From NCBI RefSeq assembly GCF_002294185.1, contig NZ_DBFD01000050.1: DNA of 64,000 nucleotides, one strand, 5' to 3'. Origin of the DNA: Paracoccus sp. UBA889. Its GTDB lineage: Bacteria; Pseudomonadota; Alphaproteobacteria; Rhodobacterales; Rhodobacteraceae. The stretch's first letter is position 1. Each line of letters begins with the position of its first letter. The translations under genes were made by a program, and so were the position numbers. This document shows, one piece after another, positions 12,145-61,175 of this stretch. The notes under the pieces are model-generated. The model had not been told where the DNA came from. It was given only the letters and a program-made list of their open reading frames with translations, and did not search any database.

Positions 12145-12156
12145 GTGAAGCTCCCT

Positions 12157-12241: not shown

Positions 12242-12272
12242 CAGTAGGGGTCCGGGCGGCGCGACGCAGGCA

Positions 12273-40175: not shown

Positions 40176-40188
<13 letters not shown>
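38911..40188 (+). CDS. CAP (SCP) domain protein with RTX Ca-binding repeats, probable type I secreted
   Basis: CAP motifs FSHTG, SENIA, SPSHRANIL; GGxGxDxLx nonapeptides; no N-terminal signal peptide. Confidence 0.85.
39560..39965 (+). repeat. RTX nonapeptide tandem repeats (27-nt period, GGxGxDxLx), approximate bounds
   Basis: Repeated GGC GGC AAT GGC GAC GAC / GGC AAC GAC CGC CTG units inside the CAP-RTX gene. Confidence 0.85.
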
Positions 40189-41695
<1,507 letters not shown>

Positions 41696-41699
<4 letters not shown>

Positions 41700-44331: not shown

Positions 44332-44831
44332 CAGACCTCCTTGCCGGGCGTCTCGCCCGTGATCGCCATCAGCATCTGCACGATCAGTTGCAGCATCATC
44401 AGCCCCATCGCGAAAGGCACCGGCCAGAACGGGATCCACAGAGGCAGCGCCCAGATCGTGTCGGTCGTCCAGCCGCGCGAGGCGGCCTCGTAGAGAAAGA
44501 CGAAACCGGACCAGGCCAGCGCGCCGACAAAGCCCAACGAGGCCAGCCCCGAGATCAGCGCGAAGACCCGCCGCAGCCCCGGACCGGCCGCCTCGACCAG
44601 CAGATCGACCCCGACATGGCCGCGCAGCGCCAGCACGTAGGGGCTGCCCAGCATCATCGCCGCCGTGGTGGCGTAGATGACGAATTCGGTCTGCCACACG
44701 GTCGAGGCGCCCAGAACATAGCGGGAAAACACCATCTGCGTCACCACGACCGTCGCCGCGGCCAGCAGCATCATCGCAAGCAGGCCGCTGAGCCGGGCAA
44801 GACCGTTCAGAAGCCGCAGAAGGCCGCTCAT
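44331..44831 (-). CDS. dctQ: TRAP small permease
   Basis: Four TM segments, WQTEF, HVGVDL, PLWIP. GGAGG RBS favours the 44831 start. Confidence 0.88.
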   Translation of the reverse strand: MSGLLRLLNGLARLSGLLAMMLLAAATVVVTQMVFSRYVLGASTVWQTEFVIYATTAAMMLGSPYVLALRGHVGVDLLVEAAGPGLRRVFALISGLASLGFVGALAWSGFVFLYEAASRGWTTDTIWALPLWIPFWPVPFAMGLMMLQLIVQMLMAITGETPGKEV

Positions 44832-44874
44832 CGCCACCCTCCGCGGCTTCCCGTTCCGCGGGTCATCGCCAGGA

Positions 44875-45864
44875 TCATTCGACCGCCATCGCCTGGTCGA
44901 TCAGATCCTTGCCGCCCTCGACCTCGTTCGAGAAATTCTTGTACGAGGTATCCTGAGCGATCTTCAGCCAGGCATCGAAATTCTCGGGCGACATGGTGAC
45001 GACCTCGACCCCGGCCTTCTCGAAGGTGTCCACCATCTTGCTGTCCAGCCCGGCGGCCTGTTCGGCGAACCATTCCTCGGCCCGCTGGCCGGCATCCTTC
45101 AGCGCCTGCTGCTGTTCCGGGGTCAGCCGATCGAACGTCTTCTTCGAGATCAGGACCGGTTCATACATGAACCACAAGGCGTTTTCACCCGGTGCGGTCA
45201 GGCATTTGGCCTGTTCATACAGCCGGTAGCTGACCATCGACCCCGACGAGGTATTGGCCGCGTCCAGAACGCCGGTCTGCATCCCGGTATAGATCTCGGA
45301 CGAGGGCATCGAGGAAATCGAGGCGCCCGCGCCGACCAGCATCTGCTCGAAGGCCGGTCCCGCCGCCCGCGTCACCTGGCCCGAAATCGTGTCCGGCGCG
45401 GTGATGCAGTTCTTCTTGCTGACGAAACCTCCGGCAAGCCAGGCATCCGACAGGACCATGGCCCCGTTATCCTCGATCAGCTTGTGGATCGTGTCCATGA
45501 AGGGCGAATCGTTCAGCCGCGCGGCGCGTTCGTGGTTGCGCACCAGTCCCGGCATCAGCGTCACGCTGAATTGCGGCACCCGTCCCGCCGCGTAGTCCAG
45601 CGGGAACGAGGTCATGTCCAGTTGCCCGCTGGTCAGCGCGCTCCATTGTTCCTTGGCCTTGTAAAGCGATTCACCCGGATAGACGCGGATTTCCAGATCG
45701 ACGCCGGCATCGGCCACGTCCTTGGCGATCATCTGCATCATCTCGTCGCGGGCATCGCCCTTGCCGCCCGGAAACTGGTGGCTGGCTTTCAGAACCTCGG
45801 CCCCGGCGGCCAGCGGCATCGCGACACTCAGCGCCAGAACGGCGCAGGTTGACTTGAACTTCAT
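44875..45864 (-). CDS. dctP: TRAP substrate-binding protein (malonate, by context)
   Basis: Signal peptide, SHQFPG, RAAG, SSEIYTGMQTGVLD. Confidence 0.9.
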   Translation of the reverse strand: MKFKSTCAVLALSVAMPLAAGAEVLKASHQFPGGKGDARDEMMQMIAKDVADAGVDLEIRVYPGESLYKAKEQWSALTSGQLDMTSFPLDYAAGRVPQFSVTLMPGLVRNHERAARLNDSPFMDTIHKLIEDNGAMVLSDAWLAGGFVSKKNCITAPDTISGQVTRAAGPAFEQMLVGAGASISSMPSSEIYTGMQTGVLDAANTSSGSMVSYRLYEQAKCLTAPGENALWFMYEPVLISKKTFDRLTPEQQQALKDAGQRAEEWFAEQAAGLDSKMVDTFEKAGVEVVTMSPENFDAWLKIAQDTSYKNFSNEVEGGKDLIDQAMAVE

Positions 45865-45949
45865 CTTTCCTCCCTCGGGCGGAGCCCGCCCCGTTTCGCC
45901 GCATCGGACGCGGCTGTTCATTCTCCCGGTGCTCATTCTGTCTCGACTT

Positions 45950-45982
45950 TTGTGTATACACAAGCAATAATTATGCACACAA
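45950..45982. promoter_or_regulatory. MatR/GntR operator
   Basis: Perfect 14-bp palindrome TTGTGTATACACAA (45950-45963) plus degenerate TTATGCACACAA (45971-45982) between divergent dctP and GntR. Confidence 0.8.
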
Positions 45983-45994
45983 ACAGAAAGGATC

Positions 45995-46651
45995 GTGATG
46001 GCCAGCGCCGCCGACGACATCAGCGAGAGGCTGGAGGCCGAGATCGTCGAAGGCGTCCTGCCCCCCGGCACGCGACTGGAAGAGCCCGCCCTGGCCGAGC
46101 GTTTCGGCGTCTCGCGCACGCCGGTGCGCGAGGCATTGCAGCGCCTGTCGGCATCGGGGCTGGTCGAACTGAAGCCGCGCCGGGGAACGCAGGTGCTGAA
46201 CCCCTCGATCGGACGCATCGTCGAGATGTTCGAGGTGATGGCGGAACTGGAGGCCGTCTGCGCCCGGCTTTGTGCGCGACGCGGCGACCCCGACCTGTTT
46301 GCGGATCTGCGCGGCTGGCTGGCCCGCTGCGCGGCGGCGGCCGATACCGGCGACGCCTCGGCCTATTATACCGCGAACAAGGGCTTTCACAGCGCCATCT
46401 ATCGCGGATCGGGCAACCTGTTCCTGTCCCAGCAGGCCGAATTGCTGCATCTGCGGCTGACGCCCTTTCGCCGTCAGCAACTGCGTCTGCCCCGCCGCCT
46501 GCGTCAGTCGCTGGCCGAACACGGACGGATCGTCGCCGCCATCGAGGCGGGCGACGCCGCGGCGGCCGAGGCCGCGCAGCGCGCCCATATCCTGATCCAG
46601 GGCGAACGCTTTGCCGATCTTCTGGCCCAGCATGGCAGCGGCCGGGAATGA
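45995..46651 (+). CDS. GntR family regulator of malonate genes (MatR-like)
   Basis: LAERFGVSRTPVREAL; FCD domain; divergent from TRAP-matAB. Confidence 0.88.
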   Translation: MMASAADDISERLEAEIVEGVLPPGTRLEEPALAERFGVSRTPVREALQRLSASGLVELKPRRGTQVLNPSIGRIVEMFEVMAELEAVCARLCARRGDPDLFADLRGWLARCAAAADTGDASAYYTANKGFHSAIYRGSGNLFLSQQAELLHLRLTPFRRQQLRLPRRLRQSLAEHGRIVAAIEAGDAAAAEAAQRAHILIQGERFADLLAQHGSGRE

Positions 46652-46750: not shown

Positions 46751-46765
46751 GTCCATATCGTGGAC
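46751..46765. promoter_or_regulatory. Candidate IclR operator 1 (GTCCA-N5-TGGAC)
   Basis: GTCCATATCGTGGAC; 14 of 15 bases repeated at 46847. Confidence 0.7.
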
Positions 46766-46846
46766 GCATGTCATTCGACTCTTTGCCGGGATTTTCTTCT
46801 TGCCCGGCAGGCTTTCCCTGCCTAACGTCCGGCCCCGGGAACGGCC

Positions 46847-46861
46847 GTCCATATCGTGGAT
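46847..46861. promoter_or_regulatory. Candidate IclR operator 2
   Basis: GTCCATATCGTGGAT, 96 bp downstream of copy 1 and 35 bp before the operon start. Confidence 0.7.
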
Positions 46862-46896
46862 GGCGGCGCCGGGGGGCGCCAGGGAGAGGATCGCGG

Positions 46897-48771
46897 ATGC
46901 AGCTGGCTGATGAGCCGGATGCCGAGCTGGCGCTTGGCGGGGTCGAATCACTGTCACAGCCCAGGCGGGCGGAATCCTGGATGCGGCCGGTCGAGCTGGC
47001 CTCGGCGGCGCTGCTGGTGGTGATGATCGTCACGGTCCTGGCCAATGTCACCTCGCGCTATCTGTTGAACAAGCCGCTGATCTGGGGCGACGAGGTTGCC
47101 TCGATCGCATTCATCTGGATGGCGATGTTCGGCGCGGCGCTGGCGGTGGATCGCCACGAACACATGCGGCTGACGGTGTTCCTGCCGATGCTGCCCGCGC
47201 CCCTGACCCGCTGGGTCGAGGTGGCGGGGCAGGCGCTGGTGGCGGTGCTGCTGCTGCGGCTGCTGCCGGTCGCCGCCAGCTATGCCTACGAGGAAAGCTA
47301 CGTCACCTCGCCCGCCTTGGGAATTCCGATGTCGTGGCGGGCCTCGGCGCTGCCGGCAGGGATCGGGCTGATGGCGGTGCTGACGGTCCTGTCGGTGATC
47401 CGCACCCGCGAATGGCGCCGGATCGCGGTCAGCCTTGCGGTTTTCGCGGCGATCGCCGGACTGCTGTGGTTGGCGAAGCCCGCCCTGATGGGGATCGGCA
47501 ACTGGAACCTGCCGATCTTTCTGGGCCTTGTGGTCGGGCTGCTGCTGGTCGCGGGCGTGCCCATCGCCTTCTGCTTCGCTCTGGGCACGCTGGCCTATCT
47601 GACCTTCGCCACCCGCTCGCCGGTCTTCGTGATGATCGGACGGATCGACGAGGGGATGTCGTCGATCATCCTGCTGTCGGTGCCGGTCTTCGTGCTGCTG
47701 GGCTGCATTCTGGACGCGACCGGCATGGGCCGCGCCATCGTCAGTTTCCTGGCGTCGTTCCTGGGGCACGTGAAGGCCGGGATGAGCTATGTCCTGCTGG
47801 GATCGCTGTTTCTGGTTTCCGGGATTTCGGGGTCGAAGGTGTCGGACATGGCCACCGTCGCCCCGGCGCTGTTTCCCGAAATGAAGCGGCGCGGCCATTC
47901 GGTGCCAGAGATGACGGCCCAGATGGCGGCGGGCGCGGCGATGGCCGATACGGTGCCGCCCTCGATCGTGCTGATCGTGCTGGGCTCGGTCGCGGGCGTA
48001 TCGATTGCGGGGCTGTTCACGGCCGGGCTGTTCATCGCGATGGTGCTGCTGGTCGCGCTGGCGGTGCTTGCCCGCTGGAAGGCGCGGGCCGAGGACATGT
48101 CGGCGGTCCGCCGCGCCACCTGGGGCGATGCCGGCCGGGCGGCGGTGATCGCCGTGCCGGCGCTGGTCCTGCCCTTCATGATCCGCGGCCTGGTCGGCGG
48201 CGGCGTGGCCACCGCGACCGAGGTTTCGACCGTCGCCGTGCTCTATGCCTGGGTCGCCGGGATCGTGCTTTACGGCGGCATCCCGATGCGCCGGATCACG
48301 CCGATGCTGGTGGAAACCGTCGCCATGTCGGGTGCGATCCTGCTGATTTTGGGCGCGGCCTCGGCGATGGCCTGGGGGCTGACGCAATCGGGCTTCGCGC
48401 GCGATCTGCTGACCTTCGTCACCGGTCTGCCGGGCGGTGCGGCGACCTTCATTCTGGCCAGCATCGTGATCTTTCTGGTGCTGGGCTGCGTGCTGGAGGG
48501 TCTGCCCGCCATCGTGCTGCTGGCGCCGATCATGTTTCCCATCGCGCGCGGCCTCGGCATCCACGACATCCACTACGCGATGATCGTCGTGACCGCGATG
48601 AATATCGGTCTGATGGCGCCGCCCATCGGCATCGGTTTCTACATCGCCTGCAAGATCGGCGGGGCCGAGGCCGATCAGGTCATGGCCCGCGTCTGGCCCT
48701 ATCTGGCCGCGCTGATGGTCGGTCTGGCCGTGATCGCCGCGATTCCGCAATTCTCGACCGCGTTTCTATGA
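46897..48771 (+). CDS. Fused TRAP permease (DctQM)
   Basis: N-terminal DctQ (WGDEVAS, EHMRL) fused to DctM (SGISGSKVSD, PPSIVLI, MAPPIGIG). Confidence 0.9.
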   Translation: MQLADEPDAELALGGVESLSQPRRAESWMRPVELASAALLVVMIVTVLANVTSRYLLNKPLIWGDEVASIAFIWMAMFGAALAVDRHEHMRLTVFLPMLPAPLTRWVEVAGQALVAVLLLRLLPVAASYAYEESYVTSPALGIPMSWRASALPAGIGLMAVLTVLSVIRTREWRRIAVSLAVFAAIAGLLWLAKPALMGIGNWNLPIFLGLVVGLLLVAGVPIAFCFALGTLAYLTFATRSPVFVMIGRIDEGMSSIILLSVPVFVLLGCILDATGMGRAIVSFLASFLGHVKAGMSYVLLGSLFLVSGISGSKVSDMATVAPALFPEMKRRGHSVPEMTAQMAAGAAMADTVPPSIVLIVLGSVAGVSIAGLFTAGLFIAMVLLVALAVLARWKARAEDMSAVRRATWGDAGRAAVIAVPALVLPFMIRGLVGGGVATATEVSTVAVLYAWVAGIVLYGGIPMRRITPMLVETVAMSGAILLILGAASAMAWGLTQSGFARDLLTFVTGLPGGAATFILASIVIFLVLGCVLEGLPAIVLLAPIMFPIARGLGIHDIHYAMIVVTAMNIGLMAPPIGIGFYIACKIGGAEADQVMARVWPYLAALMVGLAVIAAIPQFSTAFL

Positions 48772-48784
48772 TCCAAGGGAGGAC

Positions 48785-49804
48785 ATGATCATGAAATTCA
48801 ACCGCCGTTCGCTGGTTCTGGGGGCCTCGGCCGGGGTGCTGGCCTCGCCGTTCATCCGGCTGCGCCCTGCCAATGCCGCCGAATTCACCATGAAGCTGGC
48901 CAACAACCAGCCGCTGGAACACCCGACCAATATCCGCGCCGCCGAGGCGGTCAAGGCCATTGCCGAACAATCCGACGGCCGCGTCGATGTGCAGGTCTTT
49001 CCATCGAACCAGCTGGGCGCGGATACCGACGTGCTGAGCCAGTTGCGCGCCGGCGGGGTCGAATTCTTCCTGCTGTCGCCGGTGATCCTGTCGACGCTGG
49101 TGCCCAATGCCTCGATCAACGGTATCGGCTTCGCCTTCCCGGATTACGATGCCGTCTGGAAGGCGATGGATGGCGAACTGGGCGCTTATGAGCGCGGCCA
49201 GATCGAGGATGCGGGCCTGGTCGTGATGGAGAAGATCTGGGATAACGGCTTTCGCCAGACGACCACGTCGACCAAGCCGATCGAGGGGCCGGCCGATCTG
49301 GAAGGCTTCAAGATCCGGGTTCCCGTCTCGCCGCTCTGGACCTCGATGTTCACCGCTTTCGGATCGGCGCCGACCTCGATCAACTTCGCCGAGGTCTATA
49401 CCGCATTGCAGACCGGCGTCGTCGACGGGCAGGAAAACCCGCTGGCCATCATCAAGGTCGCCAAGATGTGGGAGGTGCAGAAATATGTCAGCATGACCAA
49501 CCACATGTGGGACGGGTTCTGGATGCTGGCCAACCGCCGCGCCTGGGGCGCCCTGCCCGAGGATCTGCAACAGATCGTGGCCGAGAACTTCAACAAGGCA
49601 GGCATGGACCAGCGCCAGGACGTGATGCAGTTGAACGCCGATCTGCGGGGCGAACTGGAGGGGCAGGGTCTGGTCTTCAACGATGTCGATCCCAAGCCGT
49701 TCGAGGACAAGCTGCGCGAGGCGGGCTTTTACGCCGAGTGGAAGAAGACCTATGGCGACGAGGCCTGGGCGATCCTGGAATCGGCGGTCGGCCGCACGCT
49801 GTAA
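48785..49804 (+). CDS. dctP: TRAP substrate-binding protein (sugar-acid-type DctP)
   Basis: Tat-like RRSLVL leader, VFPSNQLG, WDNGFRQ, GFKIRVP, EVYTALQTGVVDGQENP, TNHMW. Confidence 0.9.
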   Translation: MIMKFNRRSLVLGASAGVLASPFIRLRPANAAEFTMKLANNQPLEHPTNIRAAEAVKAIAEQSDGRVDVQVFPSNQLGADTDVLSQLRAGGVEFFLLSPVILSTLVPNASINGIGFAFPDYDAVWKAMDGELGAYERGQIEDAGLVVMEKIWDNGFRQTTTSTKPIEGPADLEGFKIRVPVSPLWTSMFTAFGSAPTSINFAEVYTALQTGVVDGQENPLAIIKVAKMWEVQKYVSMTNHMWDGFWMLANRRAWGALPEDLQQIVAENFNKAGMDQRQDVMQLNADLRGELEGQGLVFNDVDPKPFEDKLREAGFYAEWKKTYGDEAWAILESAVGRTL

Positions 49805-49810
49805 TCCGCG

Positions 49811-50632
49811 ATGCAGACCGGCGCCCGGCATCGACACGACCCCGAGCCCGCTCCGGCGGGGTCGGGCGCGCAATCCGTCGAACGGGCGCTGGCGCTGCTG
49901 TCGCTGGTCGGGCGTGGCGGCGATGCGGGCCGCGGGCTGGCCGGGCTGGTCAGCGAAACCGGCCTGTCGCGCCCGACGGCGCGGCGGCTGCTGATGGCGC
50001 TGGCCGGTGCGGGACTGATCGAACAGGACGGCGCGACGCGGCGCTATCATCTGGGCCCCGAGGCGTTTCTGCTGGGATCATTGGCGGCGTCGCGGCACGG
50101 CATGCTGAACCACGCGGCCGACAATCTGCGCCGTCTGGCGCGGGCGACCGGCGACACTGCCTTCATCTCGGTTCCGCAAGGCGATCATATCCTGTGCCTG
50201 CACCGCGAGGACGGCGATTTTCCGATCCGCACCCATGCGTTGCAGAAGGGCGACCGCAATCCGCTGGGGGTGGGCGCCGGCGGTCTGGCGGTGCTGGCCG
50301 CCATGCCCAAGGCGCGTGCCGATGCGGTTCTGGCGCGGTTGCAGGACGCGCTGCGGCAAAGGATGGGCGCAGCCTCGGATCGTCTGGGCGCCGATGTGGA
50401 TCTGGCGCGGGAACGCGGCTATGCCGTCAATCCGGGACGGGTCGTGGCCGGTTCATGGGGCATCGGCGTGGCGATCCTGTGGCCCGACGGCACCCCCGCC
50501 GCCGCGCTGTCGCTGGCCGCGATCGAGGCCCGGATGGGTTCCGATCGCCAGCCGCGGCTGGCGGCCCTGCTGCACGACGAGGCGCGGCTGATCGAGGCGG
50601 CACTGGCCGCCGGCAGAAAGGAACGGCAATGA
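49811..50632 (+). CDS. IclR family regulator
   Basis: GAQSVERALALL, LSRPTARRLL, GAGGLAVLA, WGIGVAI. Confidence 0.9.
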   Translation: MQTGARHRHDPEPAPAGSGAQSVERALALLSLVGRGGDAGRGLAGLVSETGLSRPTARRLLMALAGAGLIEQDGATRRYHLGPEAFLLGSLAASRHGMLNHAADNLRRLARATGDTAFISVPQGDHILCLHREDGDFPIRTHALQKGDRNPLGVGAGGLAVLAAMPKARADAVLARLQDALRQRMGAASDRLGADVDLARERGYAVNPGRVVAGSWGIGVAILWPDGTPAAALSLAAIEARMGSDRQPRLAALLHDEARLIEAALAAGRKERQ

Positions 50633-51804
50633 TGCAGAATGATCCGCTGATCGTCGGCTGGGCACATACGAAATTCGGCAAGTCCGAGGCCCCCGACACG
50701 ATGGCCCTGATGGCCGAGGTGGCGCGGCCGGCGCTGGACCATGCCGGGATCCCGCCCGACGCGGTGGACGGCATCTTCGCGGGGGTCTGGAACAACGGTT
50801 TCAGCCGGCAGGATTTTCAGGGTGCGCTGGTTGCGATGGGCACACCGGAACTGGCGGGCGTGCCCTTCATGCGGACGGAGAACGCCTGCGCCACCGGCTC
50901 GGCCGCGCTGTATGCGGCGGCGGATTTCATCGCTTCGGGGCGGGGCCGCACGGCGCTGGTGATCGGGGCCGAGAAGATGACCGCGACCCCCGTGGCCGAG
51001 GTCGGCGACATTCTTCTGGCGGCCAGCTACGTCGCCGAGGAGGCCGATGTCGAGGGCGGCTTCGCAGGCGTCTTCGGCCAGATCGCCGGCAGCTATTTCC
51101 AGCGCCACGGCGACCGGTCCCACGAGATGGCGATGATCGCCGCCAAGAATCACGAAAACGGGATGCGCAATCCCCATGCCCACATGCAGAAGGATTTCGG
51201 CATCGCCTTCTGCAACACGATTTCCGACAAGAACCCGCGCGTGGCCGGGCCGCTGCGGCGCACGGATTGCTCGCTGATCTCGGACGGGGCGGCGGCGATC
51301 GTGCTGGCCGATGTGGAAACCGCCGCCGGGCTGGCGCGGGGGATCGGGTTCCGGGCGCGGGCTCAGGCGGGCGATCTGCTGGCCCTGTCGCGGCGCGACC
51401 CGATCGCTTTCGAGGGCGCGCACCGGGCATGGGCCGCGGCACTGGCTCGGGCCGGGCTGGCGATCCATGATCTGGATCTGGTCGAGACGCATGATTGTTT
51501 CACCATCGCCGAGATGATCGAATACGAGGCGATGGGGCTGGCCCCCGCCGGGCAGGGCTGGCGGGCGATCCGCGACGGCGTGACCCGGTTCGACGGGGCG
51601 CTGCCGGTCAACCCCTCGGGCGGGCTGAAATCGCGCGGCCATCCGATCGGCGCGACCGGCGTCAGCCAGCACGTCATGGCCGCGATGCAGTTGATGGCCG
51701 AAGGCGGCGCCATGCAGGTGCCGGATGCGGCGCTTGCGGGCGTGTTCAACATGGGCGGGGCGGCGGTCGCGAATTACTGTTCCATCCTGGAGCGGGTGAG
51801 ATGA
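50629..51804 (+). CDS. SCP2-type thiolase (acetyl-CoA acetyltransferase family)
   Basis: ENACATG (Cys), RRTDCSLISDGAAA, ETHDCFT, VNPSGGLKSRGHPIGATG, FNMGG. Confidence 0.88.
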   Translation: MMQNDPLIVGWAHTKFGKSEAPDTMALMAEVARPALDHAGIPPDAVDGIFAGVWNNGFSRQDFQGALVAMGTPELAGVPFMRTENACATGSAALYAAADFIASGRGRTALVIGAEKMTATPVAEVGDILLAASYVAEEADVEGGFAGVFGQIAGSYFQRHGDRSHEMAMIAAKNHENGMRNPHAHMQKDFGIAFCNTISDKNPRVAGPLRRTDCSLISDGAAAIVLADVETAAGLARGIGFRARAQAGDLLALSRRDPIAFEGAHRAWAAALARAGLAIHDLDLVETHDCFTIAEMIEYEAMGLAPAGQGWRAIRDGVTRFDGALPVNPSGGLKSRGHPIGATGVSQHVMAAMQLMAEGGAMQVPDAALAGVFNMGGAAVANYCSILERVR

Positions 51805-53387
51805 GCCCGTTGCAGCCGCCGGTTTCGACACGGGTGATGAACCTGGCCACCTTCCTGACGCAAGCGGCGCGGCGGGTGCCGCAGGACGTGGCGCTGGTCA
51901 TGGGCGATGCGCAATGGACCTGGGCCCATTTCGAGGCGCGGACCGATGCGCTGGCCCTGGCCTTGCAGGACATGGGCCTGGACAAGGGCGACCGGGTGCT
52001 GTGCCAGTCGCAGAACTGCATGGAGATGATGCAGGCCATGTTCGCCGTCTGGCGCGCGGGCGGCGTCTGGGTGCCCGCGAATTACCGCCAGACGCCCGAG
52101 GAACTGGTCTATCTGACCGAAAGCTCGGGCGCGCGGTTCATGATCTGCAATGCGCGTTTCCCCGATCACGCGGCGGCCTGCGCCGGGGCCGCGCCGGACC
52201 TGCGCCTGCTGGCTTTCGGGGATGCCGATTTCGGCCCCTCCGTAAGCGCGCTGACCGAGGCGCATCTGGGCCGGCATCCGCAGGTGGCGGCGGTGGATCG
52301 CGACGATCCCTGCTGGTTCTTCTTCACCTCCGGCACGACCGGGCGGCCCAAGGCATCGGTGCTGACCCATGGGCAGATGGCCTTTGTCGTCACCAGCCAT
52401 CTGGCCGACCTGATGCCGGGGCTGACGCCCGAGGATGCCTCGCTGGTCGTGGCGCCGCTGTCGCACGGCGCCGGGGTGCATCAACTGACCCAGGTGGCCC
52501 GCGCGGTGAAGACGGTGCTGATGCCCTCGGACAAGTTCGACGTGGCGACGGCCTGGAAACTGGTCGAGGTCTGGCGCGTCTCGACCATCTTCACGGTGCC
52601 GACGATCCTGAAGATGCTGGTCGAGGATGAAAGCCTGGACCATTTCGATCATACCTCGCTGCGCTACGTCATCTATGCCGGCGCACCGATGTATCGCGAG
52701 GATCAGAAACGCGCCTTGGCCGCGCTTGGGCCGGTCCTGGTGCAGTATTTCGGGCTGGGCGAGGTGACGGGCAACATCACCGTCCTGCCCACATGGCTGC
52801 ACAGCGCGGATGACGATGCCCGCGAAGGCACCTGCGGCTTTCCCCGGACCGGCATCGAGGTGCAGGTGCAGGACGATCAGGGCCGCGCGCTGCCGCCCTT
52901 CGAGACGGGCGAGTTGTGCGTGATCGGCCCGGCGGTCTTCGCGGGCTATTTCGACAACGCAGATGCGAATGCCAAATCCTTTCGCGACGGCTGGTTCCGC
53001 ACCGGCGATCTGGGCCACATGGATGCGCAGGGCTTCGTCTATATCACCGGGCGGGCGTCGGACATGTATATCTCGGGTGGCTCGAACGTCTATCCGCGCG
53101 AGATCGAGGAAAAGATCCTGACCCATCCGGCGATCTCCGAGGTCGCGGTGCTGGGCGTGCCCGACCGCAAATGGGGCGAGGTCGGCTGGGCGATCTGCGT
53201 CTGCCGCCCCGGCGAAAGCGCGACCGAGGACGGGGTGAAGGATTTCCTGGCGGACAGGATATCGGGATACAAGCGGCCCCACCGGGTGCTGTTCTGGCCG
53301 GAACTGCCGAAATCGGCCTATGGCAAGATCACCAAGAAGCTGATCCGCGAGGCGCTGGAGGCGCAATCCCTGCTGGACCGCGCATGA
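51801..53387 (+). CDS. AMP-forming acyl-CoA synthetase
   Basis: FFTSGTTGRPK, APLSHGAG, QYFGLGE, WFRTGD, LPKSAYGKITK. Confidence 0.92.
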   Translation: MSPLQPPVSTRVMNLATFLTQAARRVPQDVALVMGDAQWTWAHFEARTDALALALQDMGLDKGDRVLCQSQNCMEMMQAMFAVWRAGGVWVPANYRQTPEELVYLTESSGARFMICNARFPDHAAACAGAAPDLRLLAFGDADFGPSVSALTEAHLGRHPQVAAVDRDDPCWFFFTSGTTGRPKASVLTHGQMAFVVTSHLADLMPGLTPEDASLVVAPLSHGAGVHQLTQVARAVKTVLMPSDKFDVATAWKLVEVWRVSTIFTVPTILKMLVEDESLDHFDHTSLRYVIYAGAPMYREDQKRALAALGPVLVQYFGLGEVTGNITVLPTWLHSADDDAREGTCGFPRTGIEVQVQDDQGRALPPFETGELCVIGPAVFAGYFDNADANAKSFRDGWFRTGDLGHMDAQGFVYITGRASDMYISGGSNVYPREIEEKILTHPAISEVAVLGVPDRKWGEVGWAICVCRPGESATEDGVKDFLADRISGYKRPHRVLFWPELPKSAYGKITKKLIREALEAQSLLDRA

Positions 53388-54202
53388 AGGGCCGCATGAT
53401 CCATCCCGGCCCGCGCGCCACGGCGCGGGTGCAGGCCGTCCGTGCGAGGCTGCGGCGGGTTTCGGGCCGGGTTCGCGCCGGTCAGGGCGTGATGGACGCG
53501 GTGGCCGCGATCTTCGAGGCTGCGGGCTGCCGGGGCGGGATGCTGCGGCTGGACGGCGCTGTCTGCGATCCGCTGCATTACGTTCTGCCGGCATTCTCGC
53601 GCGACGGGCTTCACGCGGCCTGGTATTCGGACCGGATCGCGCTGGAGGGGCCGACCCTTGTCGGACCGGCCACGGCCATCATCGGGCAAAAGGATGGCGC
53701 CACGTTCCTGCATTGCCACGGCATCTGGCAGGATCGCATGGGCCATCTGCTGCCGCTGGATTCGGTGCTGGCCAGGGATGCCGTCCTGCACGGGATCGGC
53801 AGCGACGATGCCTGGTTCGAGGCCCTGCCCGATGCCGAAACCGCCTTTACCCTGTTCCAGCCGCAGGGCGGTGGCACCGGCGGCGGGCTTCTGGCGCGGC
53901 TGCGGCCGGGCGAGGACGTGGCGACGGCCATTGCCTCGCTCTGCGCCGAGCACGCGATCACCGATGCCCGCATCCACGGCGTCGGCAGCATCGACCATAT
54001 CCGCTTTCAGGATGGCGCTTGCGTCGATTGCATGGCGACCGAACTGCATTTCGCGGGTGCGGTGCTGCGCGATGGCCGCCCGCATCTGCCCATCGAGGTC
54101 GTCGATACCGATGGCCTTGTCCATTCGGGCGTTCTGGCCGAGGGTGCAAACCCGGTCGGCGTCACCGTCGAAATCGTCATCGAACCGGAGGAGATGTCAT
54201 GA
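53384..54202 (+). CDS. Tandem PPC (DUF296) domain protein
   Basis: N-domain FLHCHG...MGHL; C-domain ARLRPGEDV...GVGS...SGVL. Confidence 0.75.
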   Translation: MKGRMIHPGPRATARVQAVRARLRRVSGRVRAGQGVMDAVAAIFEAAGCRGGMLRLDGAVCDPLHYVLPAFSRDGLHAAWYSDRIALEGPTLVGPATAIIGQKDGATFLHCHGIWQDRMGHLLPLDSVLARDAVLHGIGSDDAWFEALPDAETAFTLFQPQGGGTGGGLLARLRPGEDVATAIASLCAEHAITDARIHGVGSIDHIRFQDGACVDCMATELHFAGAVLRDGRPHLPIEVVDTDGLVHSGVLAEGANPVGVTVEIVIEPEEMS

Positions 54203-54966
54203 GCCATGAGGCAAAGGTCGCATTGGTCACGGGGGCCGCGCGCGGCATCGGGCTGGCCAGCACGGAGCTGTTTCTGGAACAGGGCTGGCGCGTCGTCATG
54301 GTCGATCGGGACGCCGAGGAACTGACCAGCGCCGCCGCCGCCCTGAAGGGCGTGCATGTCATTGCCGCCGACATTTCGGACCGCGAACAGGTTCAGGCGA
54401 TGGCGGCCGAGGCGTTGCAGGTCTTTGGCAGGGTGGACGCGCTGGTCAACAATGCCGGCGTGGCCCTGTTCGGCCGTGTCGAGAACACCGGTTACGAGGC
54501 CTGGCGCGAGGTCATGCAGACCAATCTGGACGGGGTTTTCCTGTGCTCGCAGGCGCTGGTTCCGGCGCTGACCGACAGCAAGGGCGCAATCGTGAACATC
54601 GCCTCGATTTCGGGGCTGCGCGCCTCGACCCTGCGGGTGGCCTATGGCACCTCGAAGGCGGCGGTGATCCACATGACCAAGCAATTCGCCGTCGAACTGG
54701 GCGAAAAGGGCATCCGTGTGAATTGCATCGCCCCCGGTCCGGTGCGCACCAAGCTGGCGATGGCGGTTCACGCGCCGGAAATCATCGCGGCCTATTACGA
54801 CGCCATTCCGCTGAACCGCTACGGCGAGGCACGCGAGATCGCCGAGGGGATCGTGTTTCTGGCCTCTGGCAAGGCCAGCTTCATCACCGGGCAGGTTCTG
54901 GCCGTCGATGGCGGTTTCGATGCGGCGGGGGTCGGCCTGCCCGCTCTGCGGCGTGGCGAGGGCTAG
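54199..54966 (+). CDS. Classical SDR oxidoreductase
   Basis: VTGAARGIG, NNAG, catalytic YGTSK, VNCIAPG. Confidence 0.93.
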   Translation: MSHEAKVALVTGAARGIGLASTELFLEQGWRVVMVDRDAEELTSAAAALKGVHVIAADISDREQVQAMAAEALQVFGRVDALVNNAGVALFGRVENTGYEAWREVMQTNLDGVFLCSQALVPALTDSKGAIVNIASISGLRASTLRVAYGTSKAAVIHMTKQFAVELGEKGIRVNCIAPGPVRTKLAMAVHAPEIIAAYYDAIPLNRYGEAREIAEGIVFLASGKASFITGQVLAVDGGFDAAGVGLPALRRGEG

Positions 54967-55021
54967 AAACCGGGGCGGCAGGGACCGCGTTGGACAGCGG
55001 ACATCGCGACAGGAGGATGCC

Positions 55022-55198
55022 ATGACCACCAACCATGTGCCTTTCGACATTCCCGAGGATCTGCGCCGCGGGCTGGCGGTCGAGGCCGCGCGTTCGGGCA
55101 AGAGCCAGTCACGGATCGTGGCCGAAGCGCTGGAAAAGGCCGGGATCGACCGGGTCAGCGCCGATGATATGGACAAGCTGATGCACGGATCGCAATAG
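55022..55198 (+). CDS. Small ribbon-helix-helix (CopG/Arc-like) protein, 58 aa
   Basis: RBS CAGGAGG; FDIPEDLRRGLAVEAARSGKSQSRIVAEALE fits a beta-strand plus two helices. Confidence 0.7.
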   Translation: MTTNHVPFDIPEDLRRGLAVEAARSGKSQSRIVAEALEKAGIDRVSADDMDKLMHGSQ

Positions 55199-55277
55199 GC
55201 CGCCCGGCTCTGGCCCCGGTTCGCGTAATCTGCAAGTTTGTCCGGCGACATCTGAATGTGCCGAAGGAGGGCGGACA

Positions 55278-56114
55278 GTGAAATTCTTGCGTTATGGCGA
55301 AGCCGGGGCCGAACGGCCCGGGCTTCTGGACCGCGATGGCCGCATCCGCGACCTGTCGGACCATATCGACGATCTGCGCGGCGCGGTGCTGGGCGATCTG
55401 GCTGCGCTTTCCGGGCTGGATCCGGCCTCGCTGCCGCTGGTCGAGGGCGCGCCCCGCCTGGGGCCGCCGGTCGCCGGCACCGGCAAGATGATCTGCATCG
55501 GGCTGAACTATGCCGATCACGCCGCCGAATCCGGCATGGCCGTGCCGCCCGAGCCGGTGATCTTCATGAAGGCCACCAGCGCCATCTGCGGCCCCGACGA
55601 TCCCATCGTGATCCCGCGCGGCAGCGAAAAGACCGATTGGGAGGTCGAACTGGCCGTCATCATCGGCAAGACCGCGAAATATGTCGGCGAGGCCGAGGCG
55701 ATGGATCACGTCGCAGGCTTCGCAATCGCCAACGACGTGTCCGAACGCGCGTTTCAGGCGGAACGCCAGGGTCAGTGGACCAAGGGCAAGAGCTGCGACA
55801 ATTTCGGACAGATCGGCCCCTGGCTGGTCACTCCGGACGAGGTCGCCGACCCGCAGGCGCTGGCCATGTGGCTGAAGGTCAATGGCGAGACGCGCCAGGA
55901 CGGATCGACCGCGACCATGGTCTACAAGGTTCCGTTCCTGATCCATTACCTCAGCCAGTTCATGTCGCTGCATCCGGGCGACGTGATTTCGACCGGGACT
56001 CCGCCCGGCGTCGGGATGGGGATGAAGCCGCCGCGCTATCTGAAGGCGGGCGATGTGATTGAACTGGGCATCGAGGGGCTGGGATCGCAGCGCCAGGATG
56101 TGGTGGCGGATTGA
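55278..56114 (+). CDS. Fumarylacetoacetate hydrolase family protein
   Basis: GTG start behind AAGGAGG; ICIGLNY, DWEVEL, NDVSER, KGKSCD, GDVISTGTPPGVG. Confidence 0.92.
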   Translation: MKFLRYGEAGAERPGLLDRDGRIRDLSDHIDDLRGAVLGDLAALSGLDPASLPLVEGAPRLGPPVAGTGKMICIGLNYADHAAESGMAVPPEPVIFMKATSAICGPDDPIVIPRGSEKTDWEVELAVIIGKTAKYVGEAEAMDHVAGFAIANDVSERAFQAERQGQWTKGKSCDNFGQIGPWLVTPDEVADPQALAMWLKVNGETRQDGSTATMVYKVPFLIHYLSQFMSLHPGDVISTGTPPGVGMGMKPPRYLKAGDVIELGIEGLGSQRQDVVAD

Positions 56115-56127
56115 AAAGGATCGCGAC

Positions 56128-57087
56128 ATGACGCCAGAACTTGTGCAAATCTCGCCCCTGCGGGCCATCGTTTCCGAGCGGCTTTCCGAAAAATTCGTGA
56201 TCCACCGGTTGTGGGAGGCGGAAGACCCCGATGCGCTGCTGGCCCAGATCGGGCCGCGCGTGCGCGGCCTTCTGGCGGGCGGCACGCGGATCGACGGGTC
56301 TTTCATGGACCGTCTGCCGGCGCTGGAAATCATCGCCGCGTTCGGTGTCGGCTACGACCAGATCGACGCCGAGGCGGCGGCCGGGCGCGGCGTGGTGGTG
56401 ACGCATACACCCGACGTTCTCAGCGACGAGGTGGCCGATATCACCATTGCTCTGCTGATCGGCACGATCCGGCGCCTGCCGCAGGCGCAGGATTACCTGC
56501 GCGCCGGGAAATGGGCGGAGCAGGGGGCCTTTCCGCTGACCGCCAGCCTGCGCGGACGCAAGGTCGGCATTTTCGGGCTGGGCCGGATCGGCAAGGCGAT
56601 CTGGAAGCGGCTGGATGCGATGGGGCTGGAAGTCGCCTATTGCGGACGAAACCGCCAGGACCTGCCGCTGAATTATTTCGACGACATCACCGAACTGGCC
56701 CGTGCCTGCGATGTCCTGATCCTGGCCGCGCCGGGAACCGAGGAGACGCAGGGAATCGTCGATGAGGATGTTCTGGACGCCTTGGGCCGCGACGGGTTTC
56801 TGATCAATATCGGCCGGGGCGCCCTGGTGAACGAGGCCGATCTGGCGGCGGCGCTGGCCCAGGGCCGGATCGCCGGGGCCGGGCTGGACGTCTTCGCCGA
56901 CGAACCGCACCCGCTGCCGGCACTGCTGGAGGCGCCCAACACCATGTTGCTGCCGCATGTCGCCTCGGCCTCGGACCATACGCGCGACGCGATGGGGCAA
57001 TTGGTCGTGGACAACGTGACAAGCTGGTTCGAACGCGGCCGTCCGGTCACGCCGGTCCCGGAATCCCGATCGCTGTTGACGGAATAG
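56128..57087 (+). CDS. D-2-hydroxyacid dehydrogenase
   Basis: FGVGYD, HTPDVL, GIFGLGRIG, INIGRG, LDVFADEP, LPHVAS. Confidence 0.92.
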   Translation: MTPELVQISPLRAIVSERLSEKFVIHRLWEAEDPDALLAQIGPRVRGLLAGGTRIDGSFMDRLPALEIIAAFGVGYDQIDAEAAAGRGVVVTHTPDVLSDEVADITIALLIGTIRRLPQAQDYLRAGKWAEQGAFPLTASLRGRKVGIFGLGRIGKAIWKRLDAMGLEVAYCGRNRQDLPLNYFDDITELARACDVLILAAPGTEETQGIVDEDVLDALGRDGFLINIGRGALVNEADLAAALAQGRIAGAGLDVFADEPHPLPALLEAPNTMLLPHVASASDHTRDAMGQLVVDNVTSWFERGRPVTPVPESRSLLTE

Positions 57088-57168: not shown

Positions 57169-59298
57169 TCACTGTTCGGCGATCTGCGAGGCGCCGGCAT
57201 CGGACAGCGCGCGAAGGACAGCCTCGGTCGACAGGATCTCGGGCAGGACGATGCCTTCCGGCGCATTCGGGCCGTAGGCGACGTTGAACGGAATTCCGAA
57301 CCGCCCGAAGCTTTCCAGATAGCGGGATATGGCTTCGTCGGGCCGCGTCCAGTCGGCCTGCATGGCGATGATGCCAGGTTCGCGCAGGCGCGAGACGACC
57401 GGCTCTCGGTCGAGGACAAGTGCCTTGTTCGCCTTGCAGGTCAGGCACCAGTCGGCGGTCACGTCCACGAAGACGACCTGCCCGGTCGAGACATGGCGGG
57501 GGATCGCGGCGCGGTCGAAAGCGGCCCAGTCGGTCGCCACGCCGGGAACGGACCTGCTGTCCGTATCGGACAGGAAACCCGCCACCGCGATCGCCAACAC
57601 GACCAGCGCGGCGGAACCCGGAATCCTGATCACCGCCGGCACCCGGCCCAGCGACAAAAGCCCCGCCACCCCGATGCTGGCCAGCCCGACCCAGAGGGCG
57701 GTCCGCCGGCCCGCCACGCCGCCGAGAACCCAGAACAGCCACAGAGCCGTCGCTGCAAGCGCAAGGCCCAGGACCACCTTCAGCACGATCATCCAGCGCC
57801 CGGGCCTGGGCAGTCTTTGAACAAGTCGCGGAAAGGCGGCGACGACCAGGTAAGGAACGGCCAGGCCGGCCCCCAGGGCCGTGAAGACCACCACGATGTC
57901 GACAGCCCGCCCGGCCAGGGCAAAGGCGATCGCCGTGCCCAGCAGGGGGGCCGAACAGGGCGTGGCGAGAATGGCCGCAAAGGCGCCTGTCGCGAAATCG
58001 CCGCCATAGCCTTTTCCGCCGCCGGCACGGGCCAGCCGCGTCTGCCACGATGACGGCAGCGCAATCTCGAAAAAGCCGAACAGGTTCGCCGAAAAGACCA
58101 CCAGCACGACCAGCATCACCGCCAGAAAGACCGGGTTCTGGAATTGCAGACCCCATCCCACGGTCAGACCGAAAGCCCTGATGGCAATCGTCGCTGCGGC
58201 GAGAATCCAGATGAACGCCATCACGCCAAGGGCCGAGACGGCAAATCCGCGGCGGATGCGCGGCAGCGACTGGCCGCCGGATTTGACCGCCGAGGACAGC
58301 TTGATCGACAGCACCGGCAGCACGCAGGGCATCACGTTCAGGATCAGGCCGCCGAGAAAGGCGACGACGGCGATCCAGGCCAGTTCATCCAGGCCGGGCA
58401 CCAGTTCGGCGACGCTGAAGGGCGGCGGCGGGGCCGCGTCGGTCAATCCCGCCTGAATTGTGGCGGCACGCTCGCCGTCGGTGATCGTCACCTGCAACGC
58501 GGGAGGGTCATCCTGTGCCGCCAGGATCGGAAGCCGGGCCCAAAGCAGCCGCCCCCCGTCGCCCAGCCGTATATCGGGTTTGCCGAAGGCGGTGAATTCG
58601 CCCATTTCCGGAAAGACATCCGGCGTCCTGAACGGATCCTCGCTTCTTGCGGTCAGTGTCAGATTCGTCATCTCCGCATCCACGGATGCGGCGTCGATCG
58701 TGATTCCGCTTTCCGTGCCATCGTCCGGCACCCGCGCCGCATAGGACGAAATCAGGCTTGCGGAGGCCTGGTCGATTCCGCTGCCGCGCGGCAGGTCCAG
58801 CGAAAGGTCGAAATCCTGTGGAACGCAGACGGTCGAACAGGTCAGCAGGCTGACCCGGGCCCGCAATTCGACAGGGGCATCCGGATTCTTCAGCGTGATG
58901 CTGATCGGAAAGACGACCTCTTCATGATAGCCGAAATTCTCGATCCCGAAGGCGGTGAATCGCTGGGGCGCGGGCCACAGAAATTCGGTCTCTGCCACGT
59001 TGCTGGACCCCGACCAGTCGATCGAGGGCGGGATCCCGACCTCTCCGGGCGAGCGCCAGTAGGTCTTCCAGTCCTTGCCCAGTCGAAGATAAAGCCCCGC
59101 CGAGATCGTCCCTGCGCCCGGAGCGACGCCGTTTTCGGCCGTCAACAGGCGGGCTTCGATGGCCGGGTTGCTGAAACTGTCCGATTCCGCGGCCCAAGTG
59201 GCGGTTGCAGCGACGAAAGCCGCCATCAGGGCGACGATCAGGCAGCGGATGACCCGATCGACCCGGCCCGGGATGTTGTTTTTCACGTCTGTCGGCAT
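57169..59298 (-). CDS. Protein-disulfide reductase, DsbD family (ScsB-like)
   Basis: WKTYWRSPG and CSTVC (alpha domain), MPCVLP and TPCSAP (TM cysteines), ADWCLTC (thioredoxin domain). Confidence 0.9.
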   Translation of the reverse strand: MPTDVKNNIPGRVDRVIRCLIVALMAAFVAATATWAAESDSFSNPAIEARLLTAENGVAPGAGTISAGLYLRLGKDWKTYWRSPGEVGIPPSIDWSGSSNVAETEFLWPAPQRFTAFGIENFGYHEEVVFPISITLKNPDAPVELRARVSLLTCSTVCVPQDFDLSLDLPRGSGIDQASASLISSYAARVPDDGTESGITIDAASVDAEMTNLTLTARSEDPFRTPDVFPEMGEFTAFGKPDIRLGDGGRLLWARLPILAAQDDPPALQVTITDGERAATIQAGLTDAAPPPPFSVAELVPGLDELAWIAVVAFLGGLILNVMPCVLPVLSIKLSSAVKSGGQSLPRIRRGFAVSALGVMAFIWILAAATIAIRAFGLTVGWGLQFQNPVFLAVMLVVLVVFSANLFGFFEIALPSSWQTRLARAGGGKGYGGDFATGAFAAILATPCSAPLLGTAIAFALAGRAVDIVVVFTALGAGLAVPYLVVAAFPRLVQRLPRPGRWMIVLKVVLGLALAATALWLFWVLGGVAGRRTALWVGLASIGVAGLLSLGRVPAVIRIPGSAALVVLAIAVAGFLSDTDSRSVPGVATDWAAFDRAAIPRHVSTGQVVFVDVTADWCLTCKANKALVLDREPVVSRLREPGIIAMQADWTRPDEAISRYLESFGRFGIPFNVAYGPNAPEGIVLPEILSTEAVLRALSDAGASQIAEQ

Positions 59299-60053
59299 AC
59301 CGAAGTCCAGCCTTCCTCTTGTTCCTGGGCGGCGACATCCAGAAGGGTGCCTTCGCTGACCTCGCCCTGGATCGCCGTTCGGCCGATCACCGTCCCGGGC
59401 GTGCCGATGAAGGCCAGTATCCGGGCCAGTGCCGCGCTGTTTTCAAGGTCACGGATAACGCTGTCGCTGTCCATGTCCGCGAACATTTTCGCCTGGTCTA
59501 TACCGATATCCTGCGCAAGAACGCGAAGATATTCGGGCGTGACCTGAAACGGCGTCTTCATGAGACGTTCATGGAACGCCGCATAGGCCCCCTGGATTCT
59601 TGCCGCCAGTGCCGCTTTCGCGGCCAGCGTCGAGGCCTGACCCAGAAGCGGCCATTCATGCACGATCACCCGGATGCCGGCGTCGGGACGCGCCTCGATG
59701 GCCGAAAGCCGCTTGGTCAGCACACGGCAATAGGGGCAGTAATAATCCGAAAAGAACGCCACCGGAACAGGCTGGCCGTCCCTCGGGGTTTCGCCATAGA
59801 GAGAGGCGCAGATATTCTGCCGGACCCTGGATTCGACATCCGCCAGGTTGCTTCGCGATTGCGGCTTCAACCCGAAGAACGGGTCAAAACCGGTCGAACT
59901 TTCGCCGCCCGCCAGCCGCCGGAAACCGGACGGGTCGTTCATCTTCTCGAAGACAAGCTTGTCCCCGCCCCAGCCCGGAACGATCCGAAAGCCGGCATAC
60001 AATGCCGCGAGCCCGGAAAAAATCAGCAGCGTTCGTCGTTTCTCGGAGGTCAT
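59283..60053 (-). CDS. DsbA-family thioredoxin protein (ScsC-like), possible Tat signal
   Basis: KRRTLL leader, SDYYCPYC, HEWPLLG, cis-Pro GTP. Confidence 0.85.
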   Translation of the reverse strand: MTSEKRRTLLIFSGLAALYAGFRIVPGWGGDKLVFEKMNDPSGFRRLAGGESSTGFDPFFGLKPQSRSNLADVESRVRQNICASLYGETPRDGQPVPVAFFSDYYCPYCRVLTKRLSAIEARPDAGIRVIVHEWPLLGQASTLAAKAALAARIQGAYAAFHERLMKTPFQVTPEYLRVLAQDIGIDQAKMFADMDSDSVIRDLENSAALARILAFIGTPGTVIGRTAIQGEVSEGTLLDVAAQEQEEGWTSVCRQT

Positions 60054-61159: not shown

Positions 61160-61175
61160 CGGAAAGGACATAGAA

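Follow-up and report, generated by a model that had tools for sequence, protein, structure and literature searches.

A conserved seven-gene unit of Paracoccus couples an acyl-CoA ligase with a tandem PCC/DUF296 protein in a putative operon for CoA-dependent acid catabolism

Introduction

Which acid, and which chemistry, is served by a gene cluster that joins an uptake system, an acyl-coenzyme A (acyl-CoA) ligase, a dehydrogenase, and a thiolase to a protein of the PCC/DUF296 family? The question is raised by a locus in a stretch of 64,000 nucleotides from Paracoccus sp. UBA889 (contig NZ_DBFD01000050.1), the whole of which is called the window hereafter. Nine genes, all on the + strand, lie there within 46768–57087. 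They encode the two proteins of a tripartite ATP-independent periplasmic (TRAP) transporter, an IclR-family regulator, a thiolase, an acyl-CoA ligase, a tandem PCC protein, a short-chain dehydrogenase/reductase (SDR), a fumarylacetoacetate hydrolase (FAH) family protein, and a D-2-hydroxyacid dehydrogenase (2-HADH).

In an initial annotation made from the sequence alone, the nine genes were read as one pathway for a deoxy-sugar or polyhydroxy acid. Comparison with other genomes keeps the core of this reading, confines it to the first seven genes, and points away from sugar acids. PCC/DUF296 is a large family extending from archaea to plants, and the operon sets a tandem member of it in an unambiguous metabolic context.

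Extent and Conservation of the Seven-Gene Unit

The conserved unit is made of seven genes, spanning 46751–54966 and encoding in order a fused DctQM, DctP, IclR, the thiolase, the ligase, the PCC protein, and the SDR. Its extent was delimited on 80 loci retained from a scan with a PCC alignment, one genome per species, which were searched by tblastn with the nine window proteins and in which all predicted proteins were clustered into families. The seven-gene block recurs in about 70 of the 80 loci. No families other than these seven are common: each of them occurs in 56–71 loci, and the next-ranked family is found in 17. The loci come from Rhodobacterales and Hyphomicrobiales and cover many Alphaproteobacteria. 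The order of the seven genes is identical in Paracoccus, Cereibacter, Rhodobacter, Pseudotabrizicola, and Neomegalonema. In Paracoccus denitrificans PD1222, the genes are carried by plasmid 1 (PDEN_RS23975-24005) and followed by an MgtC gene on the opposite strand. One Brucella displays the same order minus the IclR gene, and the set is present in rearranged form in Aureimonas, Neorhizobium, Pseudorhizobium, Microvirga, and Mesorhizobium. In relatives with 72% identity of the PCC protein (L084, L085), the block is flanked by Rnf/Nqr genes at one end and by cobalamin genes at the other, the flanks being wholly different from those of the window.

Within the window, genes were chosen by domain content and codon-position G+C, as spurious long open reading frames (ORFs) are frequent at about 67% G+C, and domains were called on the nine products by Pfam and NCBIfam profile searches. 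The fused permease (46897–48771) unites the DctQ (PF04290) and DctM (PF06808) domains in one protein of 624 aa. It is separated by 13 nt from DctP (48785–49804; PF03480, 247 bits), itself followed after 6 nt by the IclR gene (49811–50632), whose product has the N-terminal HTH_IclR (PF09339) and C-terminal effector (IclR_C, PF01614) domains of its family. From there, four exact ATGA overlaps connect IclR to the thiolase (50629–51804), the thiolase to the ligase (51801–53387), the ligase to the PCC protein (53384–54202), and the latter to the SDR (54199–54966), with which the conserved unit ends. Pfam detected neither an acyl-CoA dehydrogenase nor a crotonase or DUF35 domain in the nine products, and the locus leaves no space for a further gene. 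The initial annotation had described the nine genes with their domains, the fused DctQM, the 4-nt overlaps, and the missing acyl-CoA dehydrogenase, enoyl-CoA hydratase, and DUF35 partner, and these features are borne out here. The succession that it proposed for the seven genes, TRAP uptake, CoA activation, oxidation by the SDR, and cleavage by an SCP2-type thiolase, likewise corresponds to a coherent, translationally coupled, and strongly conserved unit.

The operon is best explained as a self-contained, IclR-controlled, and widely conserved catabolic unit for the CoA-dependent degradation of an acid. We hold this explanation, taken as a whole, to be somewhat more probable than an even chance; its steps beyond sequence and genome comparison are those that we infer.

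Coupling of the Ligase with the PCC Protein

The tightest link in the unit is that of the ligase with the PCC protein. The ligase belongs to the family NF005676 (PRK07470), with 895 bits for a cut-off of 774. Using a hidden Markov model of the ligase, 15 genomes were found, 13 of which have the PCC gene beside it. Two genomes of another family, 7–8 Mb in size, carry the ligase-PCC pair alone (L102, L103), the other members of the set being absent and the neighbors unrelated. In three genomes, both proteins are encoded by a single ORF (L047:7411-9840, L049:7414-9843, and L107:8296-10662) of 788–809 residues, in which the ligase corresponds to residues 1–520 and the tandem PCC to residues 530–805; two of the fusion carriers are Neorhizobium sp. 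DT-125 and Pseudorhizobium endolithicum. Fission is also found, as four loci (L104, L105, L106, and L070), one of them from a different class, possess separate genes for the N-domain (177–184 aa) and the C-domain (130–146 aa) of the PCC protein. The N-domain copy of L070 (5858-7207) keeps the HxH..GH motif presented below.

Adjacency, fusion, and fission together fit a PCC protein that uses the product of the ligase or supplies its substrate, rather than a helper of the thiolase or a DNA-binding protein. Each of the activities suggested for it in the initial annotation, thioesterase, lactonase, or hydratase, may still apply, but the fusions argue that it acts in the vicinity of the ligase and not as the terminal enzyme. 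As a side observation, Microvirga lupini has a split PCC pair beside a hexapeptide-repeat (PaaY-like) protein, in addition to its tandem copy.

The Tandem PCC/DUF296 Protein

The PCC protein is made of two PCC folds, as the initial annotation had noticed. Its C-half matches PF03479 at residues 170–267 with 49 bits for a cut-off of 25, and the N-half of a split homologue stands just under that cut-off with 22 bits. The AlphaFold model (pLDDT 96.6, pTM 0.93) displays one pattern of strands and helices repeated twice. By Foldseek, both halves match the single-domain PCC structures 2H6L, 2P6Y, 3HTN, 2DT4, 2NMU, 2HX0, and 3HWU, the top match being the metal-containing protein AF0104 (2H6L), and the two halves align with each other by hhalign at an E-value of 1e-4. 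A search among 1.84 billion representative proteins yielded 393 relatives at E ≤0.001; among the 150 listed, most have 260–300 residues and are aligned nearly end to end. The tandem build therefore defines the family.

In an alignment of 33 sequences sharing 28–62% identity, G9, A79, S82, G101, H110, H112, G120, T153, and E263 are invariant and H121 is nearly so. The histidines form a metal motif, H110-x-H112...G-H121, located in the N-domain, the C-domain being devoid of it. No AT-hook or helix-turn-helix (HTH) was found by Pfam in the protein. PCC proteins, alpha-acetolactate decarboxylase (ALDC), and PTD012 share one superfamily in SCOP, ALDC and PTD012 being two-repeat relatives of the fold. 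When the PCC protein is aligned with ALDC sequences from six genomes, a single stretch is paired, PFlHcHg..mGHlL with PGyHfHF..GGHvL, i.e., the HxH..GGH motif, whose residues we take to be the three zinc ligands of ALDC from the Brevibacillus structure. The PCC protein gives no Pfam match to the ALDC family PF03306. On the basis of its conserved ligands, it is predicted to be a metal-dependent enzyme, probably with zinc.

Thiolase and SDR

The thiolase belongs to the SCP2-type family NF005704/PRK07516, with 629 bits for a cut-off of 412, and its catalytic residues are intact (NAC87ATGS, H288DC290F, and GH338P). Its nearest relatives in the PDB are SCP2-thiolases, an archaeal thiolase, and BbsB (128 bits). 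These relatives, together with the conserved Cys87, the His288-Asp-Cys290-Phe loop, and His338, agree with the class proposed in the initial annotation. The protein is set apart from the thiolases acting with a DUF35 partner, such as BbsAB, IpfDE, and the archaeal thiolase/HMGCS complex, by the lack of any DUF35 domain among the nine products.

The SDR (PF13561/PF00106) has as nearest relatives the meso-2,3-butanediol dehydrogenase BudC (NF052558), the FabG-type reductase 4NBU, BbsD (144 bits), and acetoacetyl-CoA/FabG-type reductases. As it scores 251 bits against BudC for a cut-off of 270, it is assigned to the classical SDRs only. Its relatives make it a probable 3-hydroxyacyl-CoA dehydrogenase.

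Uptake System and Possible Substrate

With PF03480, PF04290, and PF06808, the transporter is a complete TRAP system. DctP was described in the initial annotation as being of the sugar-acid type. Its closest solved relative by far is PDB entry 4OAN (E 6e-145, 486 bits), with 72% identity and no gaps over the whole mature protein. The nearest binders of mannonate/sugar acids and of sialic acid, 4PC9/4PCD and SiaP, reach only about 155 bits, and DctP falls outside the sugar-acid-binding subgroup.

4OAN is presumably the TRAP binding protein RPB_2686 of Rhodopseudomonas palustris HaA2. Its chain is 100% identical to the product of a gene in one sampled genome (G702), where it belongs to a three-gene unit (L159:6330-10945) encoding DctP, a fused DctQM, and an acyl-CoA ligase of NF006020 type, with housekeeping genes around. 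Two genomes sampled from its family (L160, L161) have the same three genes. The NF006020 ligase is only 28% identical to that of the operon and non-orthologous. A ligase thus stands beside a 4OAN-type TRAP system in both contexts, so that uptake with subsequent CoA activation recurs with this type of transporter. Orthologues of the 4OAN-type DctP occur in 163 of the 401 sampled genomes of the family of the 4OAN source genome, and the identity of the substrate of the operon would also tell what these systems import.

2-Acetolactate is among the new TRAP ligands of the structural-genomics study behind 4OAN (review, PMC5812351). The literature searched contained no functional data for 4OAN or RPB_2686. 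Acetolactate has the carbon skeleton of 2-methylbutanoate, with oxygen at C2 and C3, and SCP2-type thiolases accept 2-methyl-branched 3-oxoacyl-CoAs. The class of the thiolase, the proximity of the SDR to BudC (below its cut-off), and the metal motif shared by PCC and ALDC are compatible with this skeleton. Our guess, more apt to be wrong than right, is that the substrate would be a 2-methyl-branched C5 acid bearing oxygen or a double bond at C2/C3. For an unsaturated acid of the tiglate or angelate type, the hydratase that is otherwise lacking could be the PCC protein.

Accessory neighbors were considered as clues to the substrate and set aside, as none extends beyond a single locus or lineage; those around the ligase-PCC pair in L102 and L103 were among them. 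In L104, an AcuI acrylyl-CoA reductase gene (11508-12506; 440.5 bits for a cut-off of 440) follows the ligase-PCC genes, and in L050, from Aureimonas sp. Leaf454, a gene of the 3-hydroxyisobutyryl-CoA hydrolase family (2-997) precedes the cluster. Both are single occurrences pointing to short enoyl-/3-hydroxyacyl-CoA chemistry, too weak for a substrate call. In Microvirga (L052, L055, L061, and L064), opposite-strand genes beside the PCC gene resemble, as judged by eye, a DUF1537-type acid-sugar kinase, a hydroxypyruvate-isomerase-like protein, a PdxA-like dehydrogenase, and a TctC receptor. Genes of these kinds are typical of erythronate/threonate catabolism, and their adjacency is limited to this one lineage.

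Putative Operators and Start of DctQM

An alignment of seven genera displays a conserved palindrome, TCCAyATnnTGGA, upstream of DctQM and near its start codon, and, in most of them, a repeat of it some 100 bp farther from the gene. In the 64-kb window, GTCCATATCGTGGA has exactly two matches for 0.37 expected by chance. The upstream copy, putative operator 1, lies at 46751–46764 (+ strand) and was recognized from this motif count and the seven-genus alignment. The second, putative operator 2, lies 96 bp downstream at 46847–46860 (+ strand), on columns that are invariant in the alignment and 37 nt before the ATG at 46897. Between the palindromes, a stretch is conserved, AATTTC..CTTGC / CCTnATATCC. 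The two palindromes are probably the operators of the IclR encoded by the operon itself. This regulator scores far under the NCBIfam cut-offs of the named equivalogs BhcR, PcaR, KdgR, and AllR.

The reading frame of DctQM is open from 46768, but the ATG at this position abuts operator 1. The ATG at 46897 is preceded by a ribosome-binding site, GGGAGAGGA, and agrees with the annotated start in P. denitrificans. The true start is therefore placed at 46897.

Proposed Pathway

In the pathway that we favor, DctP and the fused DctQM would import a small monocarboxylate, probably of 2-methylbutanoate skeleton with oxygen or unsaturation at C2/C3, and the NF005676 ligase would form its CoA thioester, as expected from its family. 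The tandem PCC protein, depending on a metal, would work directly with the ligase; the coupling of the two is observed, and the reaction would most likely be the conversion of the acyl-CoA to a 3-hydroxyacyl-CoA by hydration, isomerization, or an alpha-ketol-type rearrangement. The SDR would then oxidize the 3-hydroxyl, and the SCP2-type thiolase would yield acetyl-CoA and a shorter acyl-CoA. The IclR protein, produced from the same transcript, would bind the two palindromes around the promoter and respond to the substrate or to its CoA ester.

The literature searched assigns no enzymatic function to prokaryotic PCC/DUF296 proteins. We suggest, tentatively and at odds clearly below even, that the tandem protein may represent a new kind of zinc-dependent enzyme acting on acyl-CoA thioesters, by hydration, alpha-ketol rearrangement, or C-C cleavage of 2-methyl-2/3-oxy-butanoyl-CoA, and that with the ligase it would define a route for C5 acids of acetolactate skeleton. 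If so, the PCC fold, which plants use in AHL chromatin proteins, would receive its first enzymatic function. The route would also be an undescribed one, leading from tiglate/angelate, 2-methyl-3-hydroxybutyrate, 2,3-dihydroxy-2-methylbutyrate, or acetolactate to acetyl-CoA and propionyl- or lactyl-CoA.

Several points weigh against the favored pathway. Many clusters of Microvirga and Mesorhizobium have no thiolase, nor do the genomes having only the ligase-PCC pair, and thiolysis is therefore not obligatory in the unit. Many clusters carry an extra second SDR, an alpha/beta-hydrolase, or an amidohydrolase_2, which the simple scheme leaves unexplained. In two genomes (G056, G323), the 4OAN-type TRAP genes and the ligase-PCC pair are 160–215 kb apart, so that transporter and enzymes are not linked everywhere. 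Transcript data bring no evidence of co-transcription or induction: a marine metatranscriptome covering the window has a flat, DNA-like depth, with one contig spanning opposite-strand genes, and four P. denitrificans RNA runs are at this locus either almost empty or unstranded and flat. The relationship of the PCC protein with ALDC is not significant by hhalign (probability 0.5%) and low by Foldseek for the two-domain ALDC (probability 0.4–0.6, TM 0.25–0.29). The ligand density in 4OAN was reportedly modeled as (S)-2-acetolactate, and this ligand would presumably be a co-purified Escherichia coli metabolite, maybe not the natural one. The substrate and the enzyme roles are, moreover, predictions from sequence.

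Alternative Explanations

The same operon may be read with the PCC protein acting last, as a metal-dependent acyl-CoA thioesterase comparable to the PTD012 ester hydrolase, which would free a lactyl-, glycolyl-, or glyceryl-CoA product and replace the CoA-transferase of the Klebsiella michiganensis route described below. PTD012, of the same structural superfamily, has esterase activity, nothing else in the operon would deal with an unusual acyl-CoA product, and alpha/beta-hydrolases accompany some cluster variants. A ligase fused to a thioesterase, or left alone with it as in L102 and L103, would risk a futile cycle, however, and the PCC gene is kept where the thiolase is missing. We regard this reading as unlikely.

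We give still less probability to the nine-gene pathway of the initial annotation, in which a deoxy-sugar or polyhydroxy acid would be activated, oxidized, and thiolyzed and the FAH-family hydrolase (55278–56114; PF01557) and the glyoxylate/hydroxypyruvate-reductase-like 2-HADH (56128–57087; PF02826/PF00389) would process the resulting hydroxy/keto-acid fragment. The nine genes share one strand, and a CoA-dependent route for a sugar-derived acid has a precedent in K. michiganensis (PMC6365646). Nevertheless, 311 nt separate the SDR from the FAH gene, itself 13 nt from the 2-HADH gene. A scan of this gap for promoters and terminators gave nothing useful. The own genome of the source organism (L086, on a contig 99% identical to the window) is the only one in which FAH and 2-HADH come after the block. 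They are missing behind it in P. denitrificans and in L084 and L085, as from 79 of the 80 other loci altogether, the exception (L050) having only an FAH paralogue of 35% identity, and the 2-HADH occurs in none. Phyletic distribution is also mismatched, FAH being found in 73 of the 81 genomes of the family of the source organism, whereas the ligase family is present in only 15 of 401 Pseudomonadota genomes across the phylum.

FAH has, besides, a partner of its own. A 2-keto-3-deoxy-acid dehydrogenase is usually paired with a diketo-acid hydrolase, and in 17 of 24 relatives (L120-L143) the FAH orthologue lies about 50 nt behind an SDR that is 31–36% identical to the operon SDR. A 2-HADH behind FAH was encountered, outside the own genome, in a single case among the 24 relatives, with 33% identity. 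In the own genome, no other SDR precedes FAH, which may be counted in favor of the nine-gene pathway, as may the lack of a close copy of the partner SDR elsewhere (best match 39–43% identical); the 311-nt gap contains no remnant of it either. The own genome thus lost, or never had, this partner. Against the 2,4-didehydro-3-deoxy-L-rhamnonate hydrolase family NF053535, the FAH protein scores 415 bits, under the cut-off of 500, and the adjacent 2-keto-3-deoxy-acid 4-dehydrogenase SDR that is characteristic of the context of this family is likewise missing at the window locus. Because the adjacency is restricted to the own genome and FAH, near-universal in its family, is normally paired with a different SDR, we read FAH and 2-HADH as a separate two-gene unit that merely adjoins the operon in this genome, although a local, lineage-specific link may exist, and their inclusion in the pathway is not supported. 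Nor is the deoxy-sugar or polyhydroxy-acid substrate, as the operon has neither glycerate kinase nor CoA-transferase and its DctP is an orthologue of 4OAN, not a sugar-acid binder.

A similarly low probability is attached to a PCC protein that would take the free acid after import, ahead of its CoA activation or in place of it, as an ALDC-like beta-keto-acid decarboxylase or as a racemase. It shares with ALDC the HxH..GGH motif and a two-domain build, BudC, the best named family of the SDR, is an acetoin/butanediol dehydrogenase, acetolactate is the ligand reportedly modeled in the DctP orthologue, and the own genome contains no canonical ALDC. Decarboxylation would, however, remove the carboxylate needed by the ligase, the homology with ALDC is confined to the motif (see the hhalign and TM values above), and the histidines stand in the N-domain here versus the C-terminal half of ALDC.

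Finally, a non-catalytic PCC protein, either DNA-binding or regulatory (a "PD1-like DNA-binding motif" according to the source annotations) or structural, as a substitute for the DUF35 partner that SCP2-type thiolases often need and that is missing among the products, is very improbable, since it has no AT-hook or HTH in an operon already provided with an IclR regulator, its metal ligands are invariant, it is fused to the ligase and not to the thiolase, and it is retained in clusters without thiolase.

Genomic and Environmental Context

Just upstream of the operon, a malonate-utilization cluster occupies 40176–46651, mainly on the - strand. It encodes on that strand a MatB-like AMP-ligase (40176–41699), a malonyl-CoA decarboxylase (41696–43018), and a TRAP DctM/DctQ/DctP system (43015–45864), beside a divergent GntR/FCD regulator on the + strand (45995–46651). 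Downstream of FAH and 2-HADH are found a DsbD-type thiol:disulfide interchange protein (57169–59298, - strand) and DsbA/ScsC-like thioredoxin-fold proteins (59283–60053, - strand; 60774–61907, + strand).

The own genome amounts to 3.25 Mb in 79 contigs. Positions 50629–57087 of the window are near-identical in metagenome runs from marine samples and seawater (sampled-word share 0.95–1.00; several studies, 2014–2024), and the source organism is therefore a widespread marine bacterium.

Comparison with Known Systems

The 2-deoxyribonate route of K. michiganensis M5al (Price et al. 2019, PMC6365646) involves a CoA synthetase, a 3-hydroxyacyl-CoA dehydrogenase, a thiolase, a CoA-transferase, and a glycerate kinase. 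Compared by enzyme class, the operon has the first three, applied in both cases to an acid already 3-hydroxylated, so that neither acyl-CoA dehydrogenase nor hydratase is needed. It has no CoA-transferase or glycerate kinase, whereas the K. michiganensis cluster has no PCC protein. The analogy with deoxyribonate drawn in the initial annotation is thus fair as regards the logic and fails as regards membership.

The lower part of isoleucine degradation, or 2-methyl-branched beta-oxidation, shares with the operon an SDR-type 3-hydroxyacyl-CoA dehydrogenase followed by a thiolase that takes 2-methyl branches. The enzyme families (2-methyl-3-hydroxybutyryl-CoA dehydrogenase and 2-methylacetoacetyl-CoA thiolase) differ from those of the operon, which has, in addition, dedicated uptake, a ligase, and a PCC protein, and the substrates would match only if our guess holds. 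The acetolactate reportedly modeled in 4OAN is built on the carbon skeleton of this branched pathway. In benzylsuccinate (Bbs) degradation, BbsB and BbsD are among the nearest solved relatives of the operon thiolase and SDR, and in ibuprofen (Ipf) degradation, a CoA ligase also acts before an SCP2-type thiolase. Both systems have a DUF35 partner and aromatic substrates, whereas the operon has a PCC protein, which associates with the ligase and not with the thiolase.

The operon therefore resembles the K. michiganensis route and 2-methyl-branched beta-oxidation in logic and is a member of neither known system, given its lack of CoA-transferase, glycerate kinase, and DUF35 partner and its PCC family without known activity. 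The 4OAN system of R. palustris is alike in its 72%-identical DctP and in the fused DctQM and acyl-CoA ligase encoded behind it, but this ligase is of another family and no thiolase, PCC protein, or SDR is encoded nearby.

As for the PCC protein, each of its halves has the fold of the single-domain proteins AF0104 (2H6L), VCA0587 (2P6Y), PH0802 (2DT4), and BT_1116 (3HTN), and the HxH...GH motif of its N-domain matches the zinc-ligand motif of ALDC. Unlike the single-domain proteins, it combines two fused domains, keeps one metal site, and belongs to a family locked to a CoA ligase. The bacterial PCC/DUF296 fold thereby gains an enzymatic role that can be tested in a tractable model organism, Paracoccus denitrificans.

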